This document shows positions 48,630 to 56,702 of a DNA stretch of 64,000 nt, piece after piece. This DNA comes from Candidatus Thorarchaeota archaeon. GTDB taxonomy: Archaea > Asgardarchaeota > Thorarchaeia > Thorarchaeales > Thorarchaeaceae. The notes below the pieces were generated by a model. The model did not search any database. It saw nothing but the letters and a program-made list of their open reading frames with translations, and was not told the origin of the DNA. The stretch spans positions 64,001 to 128,000 of the forward strand of contig RDNZ01000001.1 in assembly GCA_011364905.1 (NCBI GenBank). The letters are read 5' to 3'. The position numbers and the translations under genes are program-made. How positions within the stretch are numbered: position 1 is the stretch's first letter; each line of letters begins with the position of its first letter.

Positions 48630-50870
48630 TCAGTTGCTTTTAGAAAGCAATCTAATGGTGAACAGACGCCCCTCACAGACGTCCGTGCGTGCGTAAGTTT
48701 CCTTACTGAATTGTCCATTCAACGATTCAGTCATCAATTCTGCAGCAAGCAGGCCTAGTGTTCCGCTACTGTAGCCATCCTGTTCATCTGCCCTTCGACC
48801 AGGAGCTTTGATGTCGATTTCCCAGTAACTCTGACCAGAGTATTCAGCTTCATGAATAGCTATCCTAACGGTTTCGCCCCTCTTTCTGCACTCCAGTGCA
48901 CTATAGAGAATGTTAAGAAAGATATGCACAAGGAGATCATTTGCCATCACATAAGCATCGTATTCCTCTGATTGGAATTCCACAATGAGCTCGCCAGAGC
49001 CTATTCGCCTAGTGAAGATATCTAGCGCGCTCACTATTGTATCCACTAGGTTTGTTGGTTGCAGTTCGCTGAGTTTCAGATTATCAGCTTCACTAAGAAG
49101 TCGTACATTACTAATTAATTGCTCAGAGAATGAGATGACCTGACGTCCGTCTTCAGCAAGACGTTTCCGCTTTTCATTTGTCAAATCATTGGACCCAAGG
49201 AGTTCCAAAGACATCATCATCATCTGATTGTAATTTGACACATCGTGCATGAGGAGGTCTGCATACATGTTAGCGCGTCTGTGCGAATCCTCAACCTGAT
49301 GCATGGATCTGACATATAGCCAAATCAATAGAGGCGGCCCAGCAAGAAGCCCGACAAATAGGAGCACCTCTGAGATCCACCATCCGGGTGTCCATGCAAC
49401 ATAATACCCTTTGAGGGTGTTCGGGAGAATCCACATGTTCAAGAAGAATAGCACATACAGCTCCACCGGCGGTTTGCCTTTCGACCCTTCAGCAAGCATG
49501 AAGATGATGTATGCAAAAGCGAACATGATGAACAAGTTTGACCCAACTATTACTATGCTGCTCAATGGGCTCGTGCCTATTGAGGGCCATATCCCTATGG
49601 CAACTTGATTCACTATTTCTCCGAGTTCAATTGCTCCAACAAGACCAAGAATAACGAGAAGCAGCTGGATTGCTGAAGGAACCTTTTCTAGCTTGATTGG
49701 AGGTGTCCTTGTCCACCGGATAGTCAAGTAAAGAAGACCAATTGTGAGCAGACTTCCGACTGTGATTGGAGTGACGGGTTCTCCTTGCAAGGATTCGGAA
49801 AGGAGAAAACGGACCACAAGTGCTATTGCCACACCAGCCCACATGCCGAATAGAAGTATCAATGGATAATGATTCCAGTTTTCCTTTCTCTTCGGATAGA
49901 CATAGAGAAGAATTGCCATCATTATTGATAATGATGCAGCGCCAAGGTGAATGATGGAGTACGCCAGAAGATTCTCAAGCGGAGGGGGAGAAGTGAGAGA
50001 CATCTTTTCGATTGTGATGGTCAAAAGAAACGGGAGGTATGCAATCAGAATTAAGCCTATGACAATACCATAAGCGAATTTCCGGTTGTAACCTTGCTGG
50101 CGCAAGAAGGGTACACCCATAGCCAATGCTAGAAGCACATATGCAGCCATTTGCAATGTTTCTGGATATTCCCAGTTTGCTGTGGGATCGGGAAGAGTTG
50201 ATAGGAGCAAAGCTGCAGCGATGGAGAACAACAAGACAGAACTGATAAGATAGCCGGAGTCAAGTTGAAAACCATACTTCTTGATTTTGGGGATCATGAG
50301 TGCTATCAACAAAAAGCAGACGACGCTAATGCTGCAAAGTACCCAGCTCATGTCATTCAATAGCGTTGGAGTTATGAAATCCACAACGAGTAACGAAATC
50401 AAACCATAGACAATCAATGGTAGTAAGACGATTATGATTATGATTAGGCGGTTTGGAATTGCTTGCCTCCTTTGAGGGTCATCTTTAATGATGAATACGC
50501 AAGCAGCCATTAGAAGAACTGCCAGCATGGACAACTCCAAGAGGTCGGTGATCAATAGCGATGGTTCTCGCTGAACAGTTTCACCCGGTTCAAGGAGTAA
50601 ATGCCTCAGTGCGCTGCCTATATGAACAATCATTGGAAAAAGCAACGCTGTCATCAGGAGCATGTTTGGTCGATTCAGTTTCTCTTGATAGGCAAGTACG
50701 CTTAACGCTGCAGGTATCGCAATCCAGAATGCAATCATAGCATGGACACCAATTCTTGTGGCAGGTGTGTACGAAACGAAATTGCCCGGCCCAATAACAA
50801 ACGCGGCAGCTAAAGTCGCGAGAGGGACTAAGACTATGACTTTGACCAATGCTCGTCTTAATCCTCTCAC
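48630..50870 (-). CDS. Polytopic membrane sensor with HisKA domain and degenerate HATPase domain
   Basis: About 14 TM; H-box MHDVSNYNQ present; N-box NILYSA, G1 IKAPG, no F-box, G2 GTLGL. Confidence 0.8.
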   Translation of the reverse strand: MRGLRRALVKVIVLVPLATLAAAFVIGPGNFVSYTPATRIGVHAMIAFWIAIPAALSVLAYQEKLNRPNMLLMTALLFPMIVHIGSALRHLLLEPGETVQREPSLLITDLLELSMLAVLLMAACVFIIKDDPQRRQAIPNRLIIIIIVLLPLIVYGLISLLVVDFITPTLLNDMSWVLCSISVVCFLLIALMIPKIKKYGFQLDSGYLISSVLLFSIAAALLLSTLPDPTANWEYPETLQMAAYVLLALAMGVPFLRQQGYNRKFAYGIVIGLILIAYLPFLLTITIEKMSLTSPPPLENLLAYSIIHLGAASLSIMMAILLYVYPKRKENWNHYPLILLFGMWAGVAIALVVRFLLSESLQGEPVTPITVGSLLTIGLLYLTIRWTRTPPIKLEKVPSAIQLLLVILGLVGAIELGEIVNQVAIGIWPSIGTSPLSSIVIVGSNLFIMFAFAYIIFMLAEGSKGKPPVELYVLFFLNMWILPNTLKGYYVAWTPGWWISEVLLFVGLLAGPPLLIWLYVRSMHQVEDSHRRANMYADLLMHDVSNYNQMMMMSLELLGSNDLTNEKRKRLAEDGRQVISFSEQLISNVRLLSEADNLKLSELQPTNLVDTIVSALDIFTRRIGSGELIVEFQSEEYDAYVMANDLLVHIFLNILYSALECRKRGETVRIAIHEAEYSGQSYWEIDIKAPGRRADEQDGYSSGTLGLLAAELMTESLNGQFSKETYARTDVCEGRLFTIRLLSKSN

Positions 50871-51005
50871 TTTCTAATCTCCTGAAGATGCAAACGATAT
50901 CTTTGAACGTGAAAAGCCTTTCTTGCGCAAAGCCGAGGAAAAAAAGTCGAATTCTTGCGCTGAACAAAGAGCTATATAATCAATTCATCGAAGATATCAT
51001 ATCGT

Positions 51006-51374
51006 GTGGTGAAATTATCGATGGAAAAGTTTCAGCGAACGGAAGCGATTCCGGAGCAATTGCGGTATGCTATGGTGCCAAAGCCGCTCCTGAAACGCTT
51101 CATCATTGGAAGGTCAATCCGGTGTGCTATATGCATAGCACTGGCGGGTTTAATGTTAGTGCCCCTCACTGTTTTACCTGGACTGATTCTCTTTGTGCTG
51201 CCAGCAGAGGTCACAGTAGTCTCCAAGATCCGCGATGAAACGGAGCTTATTCGATGGGTGAGATGCAATATGGTCTCTGGGGAATGTAACTGGGATGATG
51301 CAGAGTCTGAAACCGAATTGGCTCGAATCAGAGCTCATGACAGACCCAGTGTAACGCAGGGTTTTGCTCGATAA
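51006..51374 (+). CDS. Small hairpin-membrane protein, paralog A (start could be 51021 or 51072)
   Basis: Aligns by eye with 52549-52902 (ALAGL...PG...LP...KIxDET...W..AE...E.ARI.A...FxR). TATA at about 50973-50979. Confidence 0.75.
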   Translation: MVKLSMEKFQRTEAIPEQLRYAMVPKPLLKRFIIGRSIRCAICIALAGLMLVPLTVLPGLILFVLPAEVTVVSKIRDETELIRWVRCNMVSGECNWDDAESETELARIRAHDRPSVTQGFAR

Positions 51375-51391
51375 ACACGGTTGGTTGTTAG

Positions 51392-51419
51392 GGCACGGGG
51401 GTCCAGCTACTCTCGTGCC
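51392..51419 (+). terminator. GC-rich hairpin after paralog A
   Basis: GGCACGGGGG / CTCTCGTGCC stem between convergent genes. Confidence 0.5.
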
Positions 51420-51467
51420 GCCTTTGTCTAGGGGTTCGTCTTGGCTTACCTGTAATTTGATTGGCCG

Positions 51468-52358
51468 CTAAGAAAGGTAATCAATAAAGTCGAAAATTCG
51501 AAGAGCAATTTGACACTCATCACTTCCGGCTTGTGCGGCATCGGCAACGGTAATTTTACTATCGGATGAGAAGGCATTCTTCACAACTGGATGATTAGCA
51601 AAATCGCGAATCTTCTCTCCTCTCAAGTTCCGTTTCAAGCATTTCATCAGAGCTTTTTGGGAATAAGAGTCCCACGGATTCACTGTCAATGCCCACGAGA
51701 ATGAGTCGATTGCGGATTCGTAATTATCGTTCATCTCAAAAGCTATACCGTAACTACTCCAAGCATCGACTTCTTTCTCTTTGCGGAAACGTGGTTTCTT
51801 CCTCTGCTGAACATCAGTTTCATAATAATAGACTTGAAGTTCAAATTGATCTCCAAGTGCTTTCTGAAGCAACGCCTTAAGAGGACCCAAATAGGGATGA
51901 ATTGGTGCGATAAGAGCCTGAAGACTTTCAGTACGATTGACTTTGATATCGAGTTCATTTGGGATTTGCAGTCTAATTCTGTTTCGACCGAGGTTGATCC
52001 ATCCAACTTGTCCTGTAGGAGATTCGAATGTGATGCCCATTGCTGGATTGTACCTAAGTCTTGTAACATGCCCGGTTCTAAATGACATAGTCCATTTTGC
52101 TTCACCTTGCTCTACGGCAACATGGACTTCTGGATAGGAACATCGCTCATCTAGGGACATCGCCTCTTTGTGAGCCTTGGAAGCTTTCTTAGCATCATCA
52201 TTAAGCAAGTAAATGTCACCCATGAACATCATAGGGAGAGGATTGTTCGGTTCACGGTCTGAGAGTTCTTCGAATACCTCGAATGCATCATAGATGTCAC
52301 CGCGTCCCAGAAAAGCAAATCCATCATCTAAGGTTGGCTTCCCCAAATCATAACGCAC
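51468..52358 (-). CDS. TPR-repeat protein with central beta-rich insert
   Basis: N-terminal TPR pair (GFAFLGRGDIYDAFEVFEEL..P.NP...MGDIY) and C-terminal TPR (DAWSSYGIAFE...YESAIDSFSWALTVNP). Confidence 0.8.
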   Translation of the reverse strand: MRYDLGKPTLDDGFAFLGRGDIYDAFEVFEELSDREPNNPLPMMFMGDIYLLNDDAKKASKAHKEAMSLDERCSYPEVHVAVEQGEAKWTMSFRTGHVTRLRYNPAMGITFESPTGQVGWINLGRNRIRLQIPNELDIKVNRTESLQALIAPIHPYLGPLKALLQKALGDQFELQVYYYETDVQQRKKPRFRKEKEVDAWSSYGIAFEMNDNYESAIDSFSWALTVNPWDSYSQKALMKCLKRNLRGEKIRDFANHPVVKNAFSSDSKITVADAAQAGSDECQIALRIFDFIDYLS

Positions 52359-52548
52359 CCCAGTAAGGACTGGCGACTCTTGTGATATAAATTATAGGAA
52401 TCTCTTTTTCTGTCTCATGCCGTTTCCGTCTAACGTTTGGCGCTGGTCAAAGAATTTATATATGTTTGTGGCACTGGAACGATAGGTAAAAACGCATCGT
52501 TCCGGAATAACGGAACGATAAGTTCGGTATTCGCGTGGTGCTTACAAA

Positions 52549-52902
52549 ATGTATAATGCAAGAATCAAAACAAAAGACACAGATGACGTGACTCACATCG
52601 AGAGTCTGAGTTTCTCACTCAATCGGGTCATTGCGAATCGAGTAGCACACATGCTTGCTGCTCTTGCAGGTTTGGTAATTCTTGTTTACATGGTTGTACT
52701 TGTCCCAGGTGCAGTCGTGATTGCCTTACCAGGAGGAGTTTATGCAGCCGGCAAGATCTATGATGAAACTCGAATCATTCAGTATCTCCGATATGGAGAC
52801 CCAGTTGATCCCGGCGTATGGGAAAACGCAGAACTTTCCTCTGAGATGGCTAGAATAAAAGCATCGGAGAACAGAGATGCTTCTAGGCAGTTTTCACGAT
52901 GA
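52549..52902 (+). CDS. Small hairpin-membrane protein, paralog B
   Basis: Same motif series as paralog A; own TATA (TTTATATA, about 52455-52462). Confidence 0.78.
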   Translation: MYNARIKTKDTDDVTHIESLSFSLNRVIANRVAHMLAALAGLVILVYMVVLVPGAVVIALPGGVYAAGKIYDETRIIQYLRYGDPVDPGVWENAELSSEMARIKASENRDASRQFSR

Positions 52903-52956
52903 GCTGATGTCATGAGCGTTCTCTCTATCTTGACAAATGAATCATCTATCTCCACC

Positions 52957-52985
52957 GTGACCCCATCAACCTCTGGTGGGGTCAC
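52957..52985 (+). terminator. GC-rich hairpin after paralog B
   Basis: GTGACCCCATCA-ACCTC-TGGTGGGGTCAC (9 Watson-Crick pairs plus extension). Confidence 0.5.
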
Positions 52986-53014
52986 ACTCCTATTTAGAAA
53001 GAAGAGGTGTCGTA

Positions 53015-53968
53015 ATGAGCTGGCCAAGTAATTATCCGGACCCCGAAGACAATGATAGGAAACCCGCAGAAACAAGTGCTGCTGCGCCATCACCAAGTGG
53101 AATTTTAAAAGATTTCAAAGTAGGTTTTACGCTTGCTGTAAAGAACTTCCTGTCATTTGGACTTGCGATGCTAGGAATTATTCTGATAACAATACTACTC
53201 TTGCTACTAATCGTACTCTTCATACTGATCCCAATCCTCTTCACGTTGGGACTCCCATTCCTCATCCAACTTGTAGAAACAATTGCAACTGGATTTCAAA
53301 CTACAACAGGACTCACTCTCGTCATGCTAATCATGTTCCTGGTCCTACCAATTCTGGGACCCTTCTTCGTTGCACTTGGAGCGATATTTGGCATGGCACG
53401 GGAGCTTGTTGAAAGCGATGGAACTCAAGCAGAGAGTGCATTCTCATGGTACGGCAAAAGAGGGCTATCGCTTCTAGGAGGGGGCGCCATACACTTCCTA
53501 ATTACGCTTGCGCCGCTTGTAATTGCATTTCTGGCGATTTCCTATCCAACTTGGAATCCCCCTTCAGATGAGGAACTGCGAGTCATAATTCCGCTTATTG
53601 TTGTCTGGATCATTCTGGTCAATGGAATGTTATCTCTAACTTATCCTGGAATCATAGATGGACTGTCAGCAGTCAAAGCCGCTGGACGCTCTGTAAGGTT
53701 AGCCTGCCAATTCCCAGTGCGCGTATTAGGTGCGTGGTTGATCATTACTGTACTTGTGACTATTCCACTTATACCTGTCATCAACGAAGTTGCATTCCTC
53801 TGGGCCCCAATCATACCTTCGGATTTATTGGAGCCGTATGGTGCGTTGGCGATTCTTACACTACTCTTTGTTATCGTACCAGCTGTGTCCATCGTTCTGA
53901 CAAGAATCTACATGATTCTAACGGCAAAAGTCGATGCAACCTACACCCAAGGAGCTGATTCAACATGA
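53015..53968 (+). CDS. Polytopic membrane protein (about 6 TM)
   Basis: GAGGTG RBS before MSWPSN; SAVKAAGRSVRL resembles the A...S..L motif of glycerophosphodiesterase membrane-domain-like proteins; ATGA overlap with the next gene. Confidence 0.72.
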   Translation: MSWPSNYPDPEDNDRKPAETSAAAPSPSGILKDFKVGFTLAVKNFLSFGLAMLGIILITILLLLLIVLFILIPILFTLGLPFLIQLVETIATGFQTTTGLTLVMLIMFLVLPILGPFFVALGAIFGMARELVESDGTQAESAFSWYGKRGLSLLGGGAIHFLITLAPLVIAFLAISYPTWNPPSDEELRVIIPLIVVWIILVNGMLSLTYPGIIDGLSAVKAAGRSVRLACQFPVRVLGAWLIITVLVTIPLIPVINEVAFLWAPIIPSDLLEPYGALAILTLLFVIVPAVSIVLTRIYMILTAKVDATYTQGADST

Positions 53969-54612
53969 ATCCAAAAGTATCCCACCCACGAATCAAGGAG
54001 TTCGAGGTCGTGACAAATCCAAAGATTATCAAACTCCTATTAGATGGAACCCGGAAGGATATCGTTTTCAACTACCTCGTGAACGAGCCCATGACAGTCA
54101 AGCAGCTTTCTGATGCCATGAAAAAGAAACCAGGTACAGTGCTGCATCATGTCCAGAAGTTGAAAAACGCAGGGATCATCCAACTCGTTGAAACCCGTGA
54201 AACACCGAGGGGGATTGTCGAAAGGTATTATCGAGCAGTGGCAAGAGAATTTCGCCTTGGAATCAGCGAGAGAATGAGTGCATACGACGATGACACAGTG
54301 GCATCAAAGGATAGGGTACGAGCAGCGCTTCTGGGTCTATCAACACTTGGTATACATATCTCAGAATCAGACTTCGAACACGCGCATGATCTCCTTCAGA
54401 GACTAATAGACAGAGAGGCCGAGGTAGCGAAAGTTTACGACTCCCCGAGCAATCATGCTTTTCAGAGTCTGCCCCCATCCACACGCTATGATGTGTCCTA
54501 TAGAATGTCACAATTCTTGCTCTCTCAAGATGCGCTATATAGGAAGACGCTCTCAGATTGGCATGACCTAATATCGCATTACTTGAGGAAAATCGAATCG
54601 GAGATGGTGTGA
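53965..54612 (+). CDS. ArsR-like winged-helix transcriptional regulator
   Basis: PMTVKQLSDAM...GTVLHHVQKLKNAGIIQLVETRE..GIVERYYRA. Confidence 0.88.
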   Translation: MNPKVSHPRIKEFEVVTNPKIIKLLLDGTRKDIVFNYLVNEPMTVKQLSDAMKKKPGTVLHHVQKLKNAGIIQLVETRETPRGIVERYYRAVAREFRLGISERMSAYDDDTVASKDRVRAALLGLSTLGIHISESDFEHAHDLLQRLIDREAEVAKVYDSPSNHAFQSLPPSTRYDVSYRMSQFLLSQDALYRKTLSDWHDLISHYLRKIESEMV

Positions 54613-55503
54613 GTGGCAATCGACTTCATTCTTGGTATAGGATTGGCACGAATCATTGCAGTTGTATTGCCAATTGTCGCGGTGGGCATATTCTATGTGT
54701 TTAACACCAGGTTCAGAGATAGGTCTGAAGGCAAGGCAAGGAAGTATCTCTCATATCTTGTGGTTCCGCCCCGATTGCACATTGATGGCCCCAATAAGTC
54801 ATGGAGAAGAGATAAGGTTAGACTGTATTTCTACTATCTTGCAGTTGTTTTGTTCTTGGCCAGCTTCTTGATTGGAGAGTTCTACCAGGTCATGTTTGAC
54901 TTGCTCCTTCCTGTTACCCAAGGCAGTACAGGAGACGCAAGAATTGTAACTGATGTGCTTTTCACAAGTCTATTCAGTGCTGGCTGGATTGGGTCCCTTC
55001 CCTGGATGGGACTTGTAACCTATCATGAAACCTGGAGTTGGATACTCTTTACCGCAGCTTTCACAGACAACCCTGGTTTTTTGATCTCAGTGATTCCAAC
55101 TTTGGTGGGAACATCCATCGTGGGTGGACTTGCTTTCTTAGTACCTCTTGTAATCAGAAAGATAAGGCAATCATTTCTCTCCTCAATGTTCTTCTTCACA
55201 ACAGGCATGGCTGTTTTTTCGAAAGCAACAATTAGTTGTCTTGCCTATGCTTGTGCTCTCCAGTTCGGAAAAGTAGAATTGGTGTATTTTGGAATAACAG
55301 CCACAGGAGATATGATCCCCGGTTTAGTCAGTGTCATAGCTGCCACATTTACACTCGCTCTTGCGATGTTCACACTATTCGTCTTGCTGGGACGAAAATT
55401 GTGGATGGTCTACTATACTGACTCCAAATCTAAGACTTGGTTCACTGTTTTCATCACTTTGAGTTACTGGTTAGGCTTTGTAATTACAATGATGGTGGTG
55501 TAA
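54613..55503 (+). CDS. Hypothetical polytopic membrane protein
   Basis: GTG start immediately after the upstream TGA, in frame; 6-7 hydrophobic segments. Confidence 0.72.
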   Translation: MAIDFILGIGLARIIAVVLPIVAVGIFYVFNTRFRDRSEGKARKYLSYLVVPPRLHIDGPNKSWRRDKVRLYFYYLAVVLFLASFLIGEFYQVMFDLLLPVTQGSTGDARIVTDVLFTSLFSAGWIGSLPWMGLVTYHETWSWILFTAAFTDNPGFLISVIPTLVGTSIVGGLAFLVPLVIRKIRQSFLSSMFFFTTGMAVFSKATISCLAYACALQFGKVELVYFGITATGDMIPGLVSVIAATFTLALAMFTLFVLLGRKLWMVYYTDSKSKTWFTVFITLSYWLGFVITMMVV

Positions 55504-55508
55504 TCAAT

Positions 55509-56702
55509 ATGGATACTAGACAGAACTTGTTGTTCGCTATGTGCATCGTAATTCTCATGATTCAGTTCGTTCCGGTCAGCGGTGTCTCATTAGCACAAAC
55601 AGATACGGATAGGGACTATTGGCCAACTGATGAGTGGCTCGTATCGACACCAAGTGCCCACGGATTAGACAATGACATCCTAAATCAGATTGATAATTCG
55701 ATTTCTGAAAACAATATTCACCTAGATTCTGTCATTATCGTAAGCGAGGGATACATTGTCTATGAGAAGTACTACAATACATGGACTCAATACATGGCAC
55801 ATACAATTCAATCCTGCACAAAGAGCTTCATGTCTGCCCTTATCGGGATTGCAATTGACAAAGGGTATATTGACAACGTGAGTCAGCGCGTTCTCGATTT
55901 CTTCCCCAATTACACTATTGACAATTGGGATCCCAGGAAAGAAAACATCACAATTGAAAACCTTCTTACAATGTCTTCAGGCCTCGAATTTCACGAGGTT
56001 GACATCCCGTATTCGGACCCGTTAAACGATTTGTTCGCTATGTATCGTAGCAATAACATGTGGCAGTATGTATTGAATAGACCCATGGAAAACGATCCAG
56101 GCGTTCAGTGGTCATATAACTCAGGAGGCATAGAACTCCTAGCAGGAATTATAGAGCAAGCAACAGGATATAGTATTGTGGACTTTGCAGAAGAATTCTT
56201 ATTCGACCCAATAGGTATTGATTACTTCACATGGTGGAATGTTCCAGCGAGCGGTCAATATGGATGCAGTGGGGGATTGTATCTCAAACCAAGAGATATG
56301 GCTCGTTTCGGGTATCTCTACCTGAATGAAGGAAGATGGAACGGTACACAGGTTATTTCCTCAGAATGGGTTAATGTTTCAACCCAGATGTATTATGACA
56401 CCGGGTCTTGGTATCACTATGGATATACATGGTGGGGTGTTCCAGGTTTTAACTTCTATGAAGCAACAGGGCATTACGAGCAGAAAATCTATGTCTTACC
56501 CGCTGAGGATATCGTAGTGGTTTTCACTGGCGATATAGCTGATGAAGACTGGCATCCGACTGACTACTTTGTCATGCAATATGTACTCACTGCAAGTGAG
56601 GAAAGCGGGCATCTGGACAGTCTGTTCGTCATCAATCTTTCTCTTCTAGTGGTTGTTGTTCTACCAGTTCCACTACTTGTGATACGACGAAGATATCACT
56701 GA
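55509..56702 (+). CDS. Membrane-anchored serine hydrolase (beta-lactamase class C / AmpC-like)
   Basis: Signal peptide, SCTK (SxxK), LLTMSSG, YNS, RDMARFG, C-terminal TM plus RRRYH. Confidence 0.9.
   Translation: MDTRQNLLFAMCIVILMIQFVPVSGVSLAQTDTDRDYWPTDEWLVSTPSAHGLDNDILNQIDNSISENNIHLDSVIIVSEGYIVYEKYYNTWTQYMAHTIQSCTKSFMSALIGIAIDKGYIDNVSQRVLDFFPNYTIDNWDPRKENITIENLLTMSSGLEFHEVDIPYSDPLNDLFAMYRSNNMWQYVLNRPMENDPGVQWSYNSGGIELLAGIIEQATGYSIVDFAEEFLFDPIGIDYFTWWNVPASGQYGCSGGLYLKPRDMARFGYLYLNEGRWNGTQVISSEWVNVSTQMYYDTGSWYHYGYTWWGVPGFNFYEATGHYEQKIYVLPAEDIVVVFTGDIADEDWHPTDYFVMQYVLTASEESGHLDSLFVINLSLLVVVVLPVPLLVIRRRYH

Follow-up and report, generated by a model that had tools for sequence, protein, structure and literature searches.

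Two paralogous, predicted small membrane proteins head a conserved Thorarchaeota gene cluster and flank an orphan TPR gene

Two similar small genes, here called A and B, lie on the same strand in the genome of a Thorarchaeota archaeon, with a gene containing tetratricopeptide repeats (TPR) between them in the opposite orientation, and the question that this locus raises is whether the three of them form a functional module. The locus belongs to a stretch of 64,000 nucleotides of contig RDNZ01000001.1 (the window), which is part of a 3.08-Mb assembly of 95 contigs with a completeness of 81%. A preliminary description of the window had proposed such a module, in which the TPR protein might read the C-terminal FxR tail of the two small proteins. 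The A-TPR-B three-gene module does not exist. A and B are conserved paralogs, the order of the genes around them is kept in related genomes together with their promoters and hairpins, and the TPR gene is absent elsewhere. We lean, with some reserve, towards a reading in which A and B are old tandem duplicates at the head of a conserved cluster for a polytopic membrane protein (M330), an ArsR-type regulator and a hydrolase, in which the TPR gene stands outside of the system and the cluster is regulated by sequestration at the membrane.

Both paralogs are encoded on the + strand and have 117 aa. Paralog A (51021..51374) was delimited from its homologs, its conserved start site, its hydropathy and its paralogy to B, and paralog B (52549..52902) from its homologs, its hydropathy and a structural model made with AF2. 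The coordinates given at first for A (51006-51374) were right for the end and wrong for the start, as ATG 51021 replaces the GTG 51006 of the list of open reading frames (ORFs). The start is placed at 51021 because most orthologs have 117 aa, an ATG or GTG is kept at this position, and a Shine-Dalgarno (SD) motif GGTGA is found at 51008..51012 on the + strand, within a GTGGTGA that precedes the start by 8-9 nt in almost every orthologous locus. The homologs of A form 48 database clusters, most of them of 117 aa, and those of B form 42, nearly all of 117 aa and with full coverage. In BLASTP, A and B share 36% identity over 96 residues (E 2e-15), and their clades are sisters in the family tree. 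Residues P53, G54, L60, P61, D72, E73, W91, E95, E99 and R102 (B numbering) are invariant in 24 sequences of both clades, which also keep the motifs PG, LP, K-x-x-DE, W-x-x-x-E and E-x-A-R and an aromatic-x-basic C-terminus (G-F-A-R in A and Q-F-S-R in B). The best-kept stretch across the wider family is P-x4-PG-x6-P-x-E-[IV]-x3-G-x2-Y-D. The first part of the preliminary description, that of two paralogs with common C-terminal motifs, is therefore well founded.

The antisense TPR gene had also been described correctly: it is an ORF of 296 aa between A and B (51468..52358, - strand) with a Pfam TPR match. Its TPR signatures, placed at both ends of the ORF, appear weak but real, with 24.6 bits for Pfam TPR_14 versus a cutoff of 23.5, E 1.2e-5 for TPR_1, and matches of NCBIfam TPR models to residues 15-71 and 179-240. 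The GC content of the ORF resembles that of its surroundings, and a TATA-like box can be seen by eye on its own strand (52384-52393), ~27-35 nt before its start. For comparison, 13 orthologous loci from other Thorarchaeota and 14 further genomes of the same genus as the window were used. Linkage of the TPR gene in relatives had been set beforehand as the test of the module, and the gene is unlinked, being absent from all 13 orthologous loci. It is also missing from each of the further 86 genomes of the class that were searched in six frames (0/86 at E 1e-5 or better), and its sole match among 5.8 billion protein clusters is itself, in a search that relies on shared 5-residue words and that very remote relatives could escape.

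The distance between A and B tells the same story at the DNA level. The gap amounts to 1174 nt in the window versus 158-275 nt in the 13 relatives' loci, which have nothing in between, and, when measured from the A match to the B match, to 1184 nt versus 168-285 nt in the 14 genomes of the same genus, where no gene intervenes either. From this gap comparison, and from contigs over the junctions, ~1 kb of DNA in the spacer (51420..52420, no strand assigned) is lineage-specific. It is located between the terminator of A and the promoter of B, where spacer length varies among the relatives too. The per-run contigs X2 (51384-51569), X3 (52367-52627) and X4 (52286-52781) bridge both junctions with no mismatch; they come from three runs of one sediment study, which may include the own sample of this metagenome-assembled genome (MAG). 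Because separate contigs cover the ORF and both junctions, the insertion is not an assembly error or a chimera. Run X1 gave no contig over the TPR part among the contigs sampled, which is not taken as absence. None of the runs listed for the stretch is an RNA run. The insert has at its two ends the copies of an imperfect direct repeat (51410-51438 and 52412-52440, 19/29 identical by eye) that consists of the 3' arm and tail of the A terminator; being diverged, it was not reported by the repeat search of the window. Longer A-B spacers in four other loci (L006, L007, L009 and L018) carry the same duplicated motif around unrelated filler, which indicates that this spacer is prone to insertions and deletions. 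The most economical account would be a recent gain of the TPR ORF, with its ~1 kb of DNA, in this population only.

What does recur around A and B is a different set of genes. In the 13 orthologous loci the order is HK746 (- strand), A, B, M330, the ArsR-type regulator, a membrane protein and a hydrolase with a beta-lactamase fold, and no TPR match occurs among them. M330 is a polytopic membrane protein of 317 aa when read from ATG 53015 (53015..53968, + strand); it follows B in 13/13 loci and has no Pfam match at E 0.1 and no NCBIfam match. Its stop is overlapped by 4 nt by the start of the winged-helix regulator (215 aa, 53965..54612, + strand), for which the ArsR-type assignment comes from HTH_5 with E 2.1e-9. 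Matches of this regulator to Phr and SdpR are weak and sub-threshold (E 1e-4 for SdpR) and serve as a lead only. The protein encoded at 53965-54612 extends for ~130 residues beyond its winged helix-turn-helix. Conserved downstream are an uncharacterised membrane protein with 7 transmembrane segments and no family match (54613-55503, + strand), for which no relationship to M330 is detectable, and the hydrolase (55437-56702, + strand; PF00144, E 1.5e-30). On the other side, HK746 (746 aa, 48630..50870, - strand) is a polytopic protein with a divergent histidine-kinase-like C-terminus; it has no Pfam match at E 0.1, and its NCBIfam kinase matches are weak and sub-threshold.

Besides the orthologous loci, divergent members of the A/B family are again immediately followed by a paralog of M330 and a gene of the ArsR type in L053, L058 (with a 7-nt gap) and L060. 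Within the genus of the window, an M330 ortholog is present in 18 of the 19 genomes with a strong A/B match versus 2 of the 8 without one; as a sign of a functional link this co-occurrence is weak evidence, the genomes being kin and the genes syntenic. The cluster is also subject to local rearrangement, as the membrane-protein and hydrolase genes are duplicated downstream of the ArsR gene in L005, L011, L017 and L018, in partly mirrored order.

The regulatory anatomy of the two small genes is well preserved. In an archaeal host, promoters of the BRE/TATA kind, SD motifs of the GGTGA type and T-rich terminators are the signals to be expected, and sigma-70 promoter predictions in the window were set aside for this reason. 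Alignments of promoters, leaders and hairpins comprised 13 loci for the A region and 17 loci for the B region. The combination of CAAAGA and TATATA that had been noticed ahead of A (50965) and of B (52448) is indeed present and conserved in orthologous loci. The promoter of A (50952..50984, + strand) is formed by an upstream element TTCTTGCGCTGAA, a BRE-like CAAAGA (50965-50970) and a TATA box (50973-50978); it is near-invariant, with the block TTGCGCTGAACAAAGAGCTATATAATCAAT almost unchanged over the 13 loci. The promoter of B (52427..52463, + strand) is formed by the upstream element CTAACGTTTGGCGCTGG, CAAAGA (52448-52453) and a TATA box (52455-52463), and its block TTGGCGCTGAnCAAAnAnTTTATATA is conserved over the 17 loci. 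The TATATA itself is at 50973 in A and at 52457 in B. By eye, both promoters follow the scheme GCGCTG-nn-CAAAGA-n2-3-TATATA; the count of common 6-mers is suggestive only (2 shared versus 0.37 expected, P 0.09), and a search of the window's genome for the promoter motif returned B's own site only, with a pattern unfit for the spacing of A. The TATA box of A lies 49 nt before the ATG, which suggests a leader of ~20 nt with the SD motif, and that of B lies ~90 nt before the ATG. Between HK746 and A there is a further element, GTGAAAAGCCTTTCTTGCGC (50909..50928, + strand), which is near-invariant in most of the relatives' loci compared and may be a divergent promoter or a regulator site.

Strong GC hairpins at the 3' side of both genes, which had been pointed out as well, are borne out by significant folding and by conservation. 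After A, a stem-loop (51392-51419) with a T-rich tail (51392..51430 in all, + strand) has a terminator-like match (dG -22.5, z -2.5), and its stem is kept in 13 loci with alternation of G-U and A-U pairs, so folding and conservation make it a likely terminator. After B, a stem-loop (52957-52985) with a T-rich tail (52957..52999 in all, + strand) has a 12-bp stem (dG -22.2, z -4.8) that is 98.9% paired over 17 loci, mostly via invariance and with one double change; this is a likely attenuator or terminator. As no TATA box is found ahead of M330 in the B-M330 alignment, the conservation of this stem-loop and its T-rich tail suggests partial termination. Directly before the hairpin, TCTATCTCC (52944-52952) is non-coding yet invariant in 17/17 loci. 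Read from the sequence, the arrangement has the build of an archaeal transcription unit, with BRE/TATA some 25 nt ahead of the start region, an SD motif and a T-rich tract after the gene, over 13-17 loci.

At the 5' side the two genes part ways. Of the 5' hairpins ascribed to both, that of B holds, its leader folding better than shuffled sequences (z -3.2), and that of A does not (z -0.34), the CGGAA..TTCCG hairpin being absent in most orthologs. Likewise, the words TTCCGGA, CGGTAT and TGGTGC, taken for similar leader words, belong to the 5' leader in B and to the coding sequence in A (51049-51078, codons 10-20), and the claim of similar leader words fails; common 6-mers are somewhat enriched (7 shared versus 1.4 expected, P ~0.008). 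The leader region of B carries three copies of GGAACGAT / ATCGTTCC over and after the likely transcription start (52476..52520, + strand), which may serve as operator and/or leader hairpins. These repeats have the form GGAACG(A/T)T in direct-inverted-direct order; all 17 loci compared keep them, and the A/T switch in them is symmetric. Copy 1 of GGAACGATA (52476-52484) is at or just before the inferred transcription start of B, and an AACGTT core kept in 17 loci is also found upstream of the B TATA box (52430-52437). As paired arms, copies 1 and 2 reach 87% pairing, and one of their pairs is compensatory (UA in 12 loci, AU in 3); copies 2 and 3 reach 86%, and one of their pairs is broken in 10/17 loci. 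In our view, a DNA operator bound by a dimeric repressor fits this layout no less well than an RNA switch does, and the ArsR-type protein of the operon would be the obvious candidate for such a repressor.

The equal length of both proteins, the similar promoters and the 3' hairpin that each gene has of its own, all found in many Thorarchaeota, agree with the proposal that whole transcription units were duplicated and kept. It looks as if A and B arose by an old tandem duplication of a promoter-gene-hairpin unit.

The pair belongs to no recognised family, as had been stated at the outset. A and B have no Pfam match at E 0.1 and no NCBIfam match; PADLOC returned only noise (E 0.039), a profile search of PDB sequences gave nothing usable (best E 0.13, a 39-aa photosystem peptide), and an Atlas search with B led to unnamed clusters only, with a top score of 0.87. 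A profile search of 400 genomes of the phylum found the family in 40/85 other genomes of the window's own taxonomic family and, outside of it, gave one weak match inside a 696-aa frame. Among 1.84 billion representatives, searched exhaustively with a profile, only 20 proteins reached E 1e-3 or better, one of them from a Hodarchaeota MAG. The named homologs are nearly all from 'Candidatus Thorarchaeota' MAGs, with one-off entries labelled Promethearchaeota and Sifarchaeia, and a scan of metagenomes for related loci found 2, one of them already in the locus set. The A/B family hardly extends beyond a single family of the Thorarchaeota. In another genus, four genomes (L049-L052, e.g. L049:6232-6932, - strand) have an independently duplicated tandem pair of divergent members, flanked by an EamA transporter gene, which lies beside an rpoA''-L30e-S12-S7 cluster, and by genes for an SH3-domain protein and an HxlR regulator. 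A strong family match with an in-frame TGA at G062:C14:27776-28117 (L039) may stem from a sequencing error or mark a pseudogene.

The predicted build of the two proteins is simple. A basic N-terminal segment is followed by an uncharged stretch kinked by Pro and Gly and then by a helical, slightly acidic tail of ~50 residues. The uncharged stretch has 28 residues in A (35-62), with a conserved Glu next to it, and 37 residues in B (32-68); it contains three conserved prolines and the PG pair and has basic residues on both flanks. An AF2 model of B built with 24 sequences has helices at 17-82 and 88-116 (mean pLDDT 65.5, pTM 0.27). The topology may be that of a wedge-like hairpin or that of a single pass with a kink. 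On the best reading, A and B would be small helical membrane proteins acting as membrane partners of an autoregulated envelope module.

Other explanations have to be weighed against this one. A joint function of all three proteins, in which the TPR domain would read the C-terminal aromatic-x-basic tails of A and B, would suit an ORF that is real DNA in this population, that has TPR motifs at both ends and that lies between two genes with a common conserved tail. However, this tail is kept in dozens of genomes that have no TPR protein, and its role therefore cannot depend on that protein; the gene, sitting in an indel-prone spacer, is found neither in the orthologous loci nor in the other genomes of the class and has no homolog, and a single-sequence AF2 model of its product reaches a pLDDT of only 36. 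We find this idea hardly credible. It had also been suggested that A and B are toxin-like proteins under tight control. They would then be toxic membrane peptides similar to type I toxins or holins, and their small size and hydrophobicity, their own promoters, the strong flanking structures and the structured leader of B speak for this. Type I toxins are short hydrophobic peptides (usually <60 aa) that come with a cognate antisense RNA and whose distribution is patchy or mobile. With 117 aa, A and B are about twice the typical size; they are vertically inherited in conserved synteny at one chromosomal place in at least 27 loci, have no meaningful PADLOC match, and lack a conserved antisense element, the sole antisense ORF being the orphan TPR gene. 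A toxin-like role is thus very improbable.

The neighbourhood of HK746 offers another possibility, namely that A and B modulate this kinase-like protein in the way of MgrB, SafA or MzrA. HK746 is adjacent to A and divergently oriented in 12/13 loci, and the intergenic region of 147-161 bp between them is conserved; nevertheless, L017 and L018 have no HK746 next to their family genes, none is recognised near those of L053, L058 and L060, where M330 and the regulator persist, and the protein has no significant kinase-domain match, which together make the proposal unlikely. Finally, A and B could be monotopic hairpin proteins with an additional helix that shape or sense membrane curvature by a mechanism like that of reticulons, REEP proteins or oleosins, independently of their neighbours. 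In its favour are the two uncharged segments, 28 and 37 residues long, with Pro conserved at three positions and basic flanks, the P-x4-PG-x6-P-x-E core as the best conserved part of the wider family, and the confinement of the family to Asgard archaea. On the other hand, there is no sequence match to any hairpin family, AF2 draws a continuous helix, a topology with a single pass is just as good a fit, the helix that follows has a moderate hydrophobic moment (0.41-0.50), and the recurrent linkage is to a regulator operon and not to cytoskeletal or trafficking genes. We consider the hairpin mechanism improbable, and still less probable the more specific form in which A and B are single-hairpin curvature proteins restricted to Asgard archaea, with a proline-kinked wedge and a helical tail, independent of the eukaryotic families and with the tandem paralogs working as hetero-oligomers.

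Membrane sequestration within the M330-ArsR-hydrolase cluster is the reading that we prefer. A and B would insert in the membrane via their Pro/Gly-kinked hydrophobic segment, probably paired, and may act together with M330. M330 would control the co-translated ArsR-type repressor by holding it at the membrane, in a way similar to SdpI and SdpR, and the repressor may bind the GGAACG(A/T)T repeats over the transcription start of B. The stem-loop after B could, by attenuation, give the small protein in excess over the downstream products. The cluster may have an envelope-related role. Several points weigh against this mechanism. M330 matches neither the SdpI family nor any other Pfam family, and the regulator's matches to SdpR and Phr fall well short of the curated cutoffs. 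For B, AF2 gives a low-confidence model that has one long helix instead of a hairpin. Family members in L049-L052 and L054-L057 are found in unrelated contexts, without M330 or the regulator, and the GGAACG repeats may do their work in the RNA and not as an operator. Moreover, synteny among close kin is weak evidence for function.

In our opinion, the exchange of a false lead for a well-delimited, conserved Thorarchaeota cluster with directly testable parts, a surface hydrolase among them, is a gain. Asgard membrane biology attracts wide interest, and annotations of small membrane proteins are rare in these archaea. The A/B pair is uncharacterised, lineage-restricted and tied to a membrane-protein/ArsR operon, and we think that its interest will be modest until topology and partners are measured. 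Besides the proteins themselves, the clear anatomy of promoters, SD motifs and hairpins provides usable examples of archaeal regulatory signals, and the case of the TPR orphan, in a spacer prone to indels, illustrates on a small scale how such genomes acquire new genes.

Several known systems can be compared with the cluster. MgrB, SafA and MzrA are small membrane proteins that modulate sensor kinases, and A and B are likewise small membrane proteins, as predicted, encoded beside a gene for a large, membrane-bound, sensor-kinase-like protein. They differ in that the linkage to the kinase gene is lost in divergent loci, homology is lacking and HK746 has no ATP-binding domain recognisable by Pfam. 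Reticulon-homology and REEP proteins have two long hydrophobic hairpins with family signatures, and both of their termini are cytoplasmic (wedge topology). The segment of A and B resembles the reticulon-homology domain, REEP/Yop1 and the proline knot of oleosin in its length, which is too great for one span and small for two, in its conserved proline kinks and in the helix that comes after it; unlike these proteins, A and B have a single segment of 28-37 residues and no Pfam match, show no sequence or profile similarity to them, and are found in the context of a regulator operon. A third comparison concerns M330 and not A and B. M330 is similar in length to DUF7847, GPDPase_memb (PF10110) and DUF975, is polytopic as they are, and has language-model features at 0.90-0.92 in the Atlas, the only likeness to these families and one to be taken as a lead; M330 has no hmmscan match at E 0.1. 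To our knowledge, the three families themselves have no known function.

The closest parallel for the cluster as a whole is given by SdpI/SdpR of Bacillus subtilis, in which a polytopic membrane protein sequesters an ArsR-type autorepressor (PMC2910880). The Thorarchaeota cluster differs from it in that M330 is outside the SdpI family and any Pfam family, the gene for the membrane protein comes first, two extra small membrane proteins and a hydrolase are encoded, the host is an archaeon, and the cluster is not known to have a secreted ligand. What both have in common is the tight coupling of a gene for an ArsR-family regulator to one for a polytopic membrane protein in one operon, a pairing kept in the 13 loci and with divergent members of the A/B family, together with a regulator that matches the SdpR subfamily model, albeit weakly, and operator-like repeats at the operon promoter.

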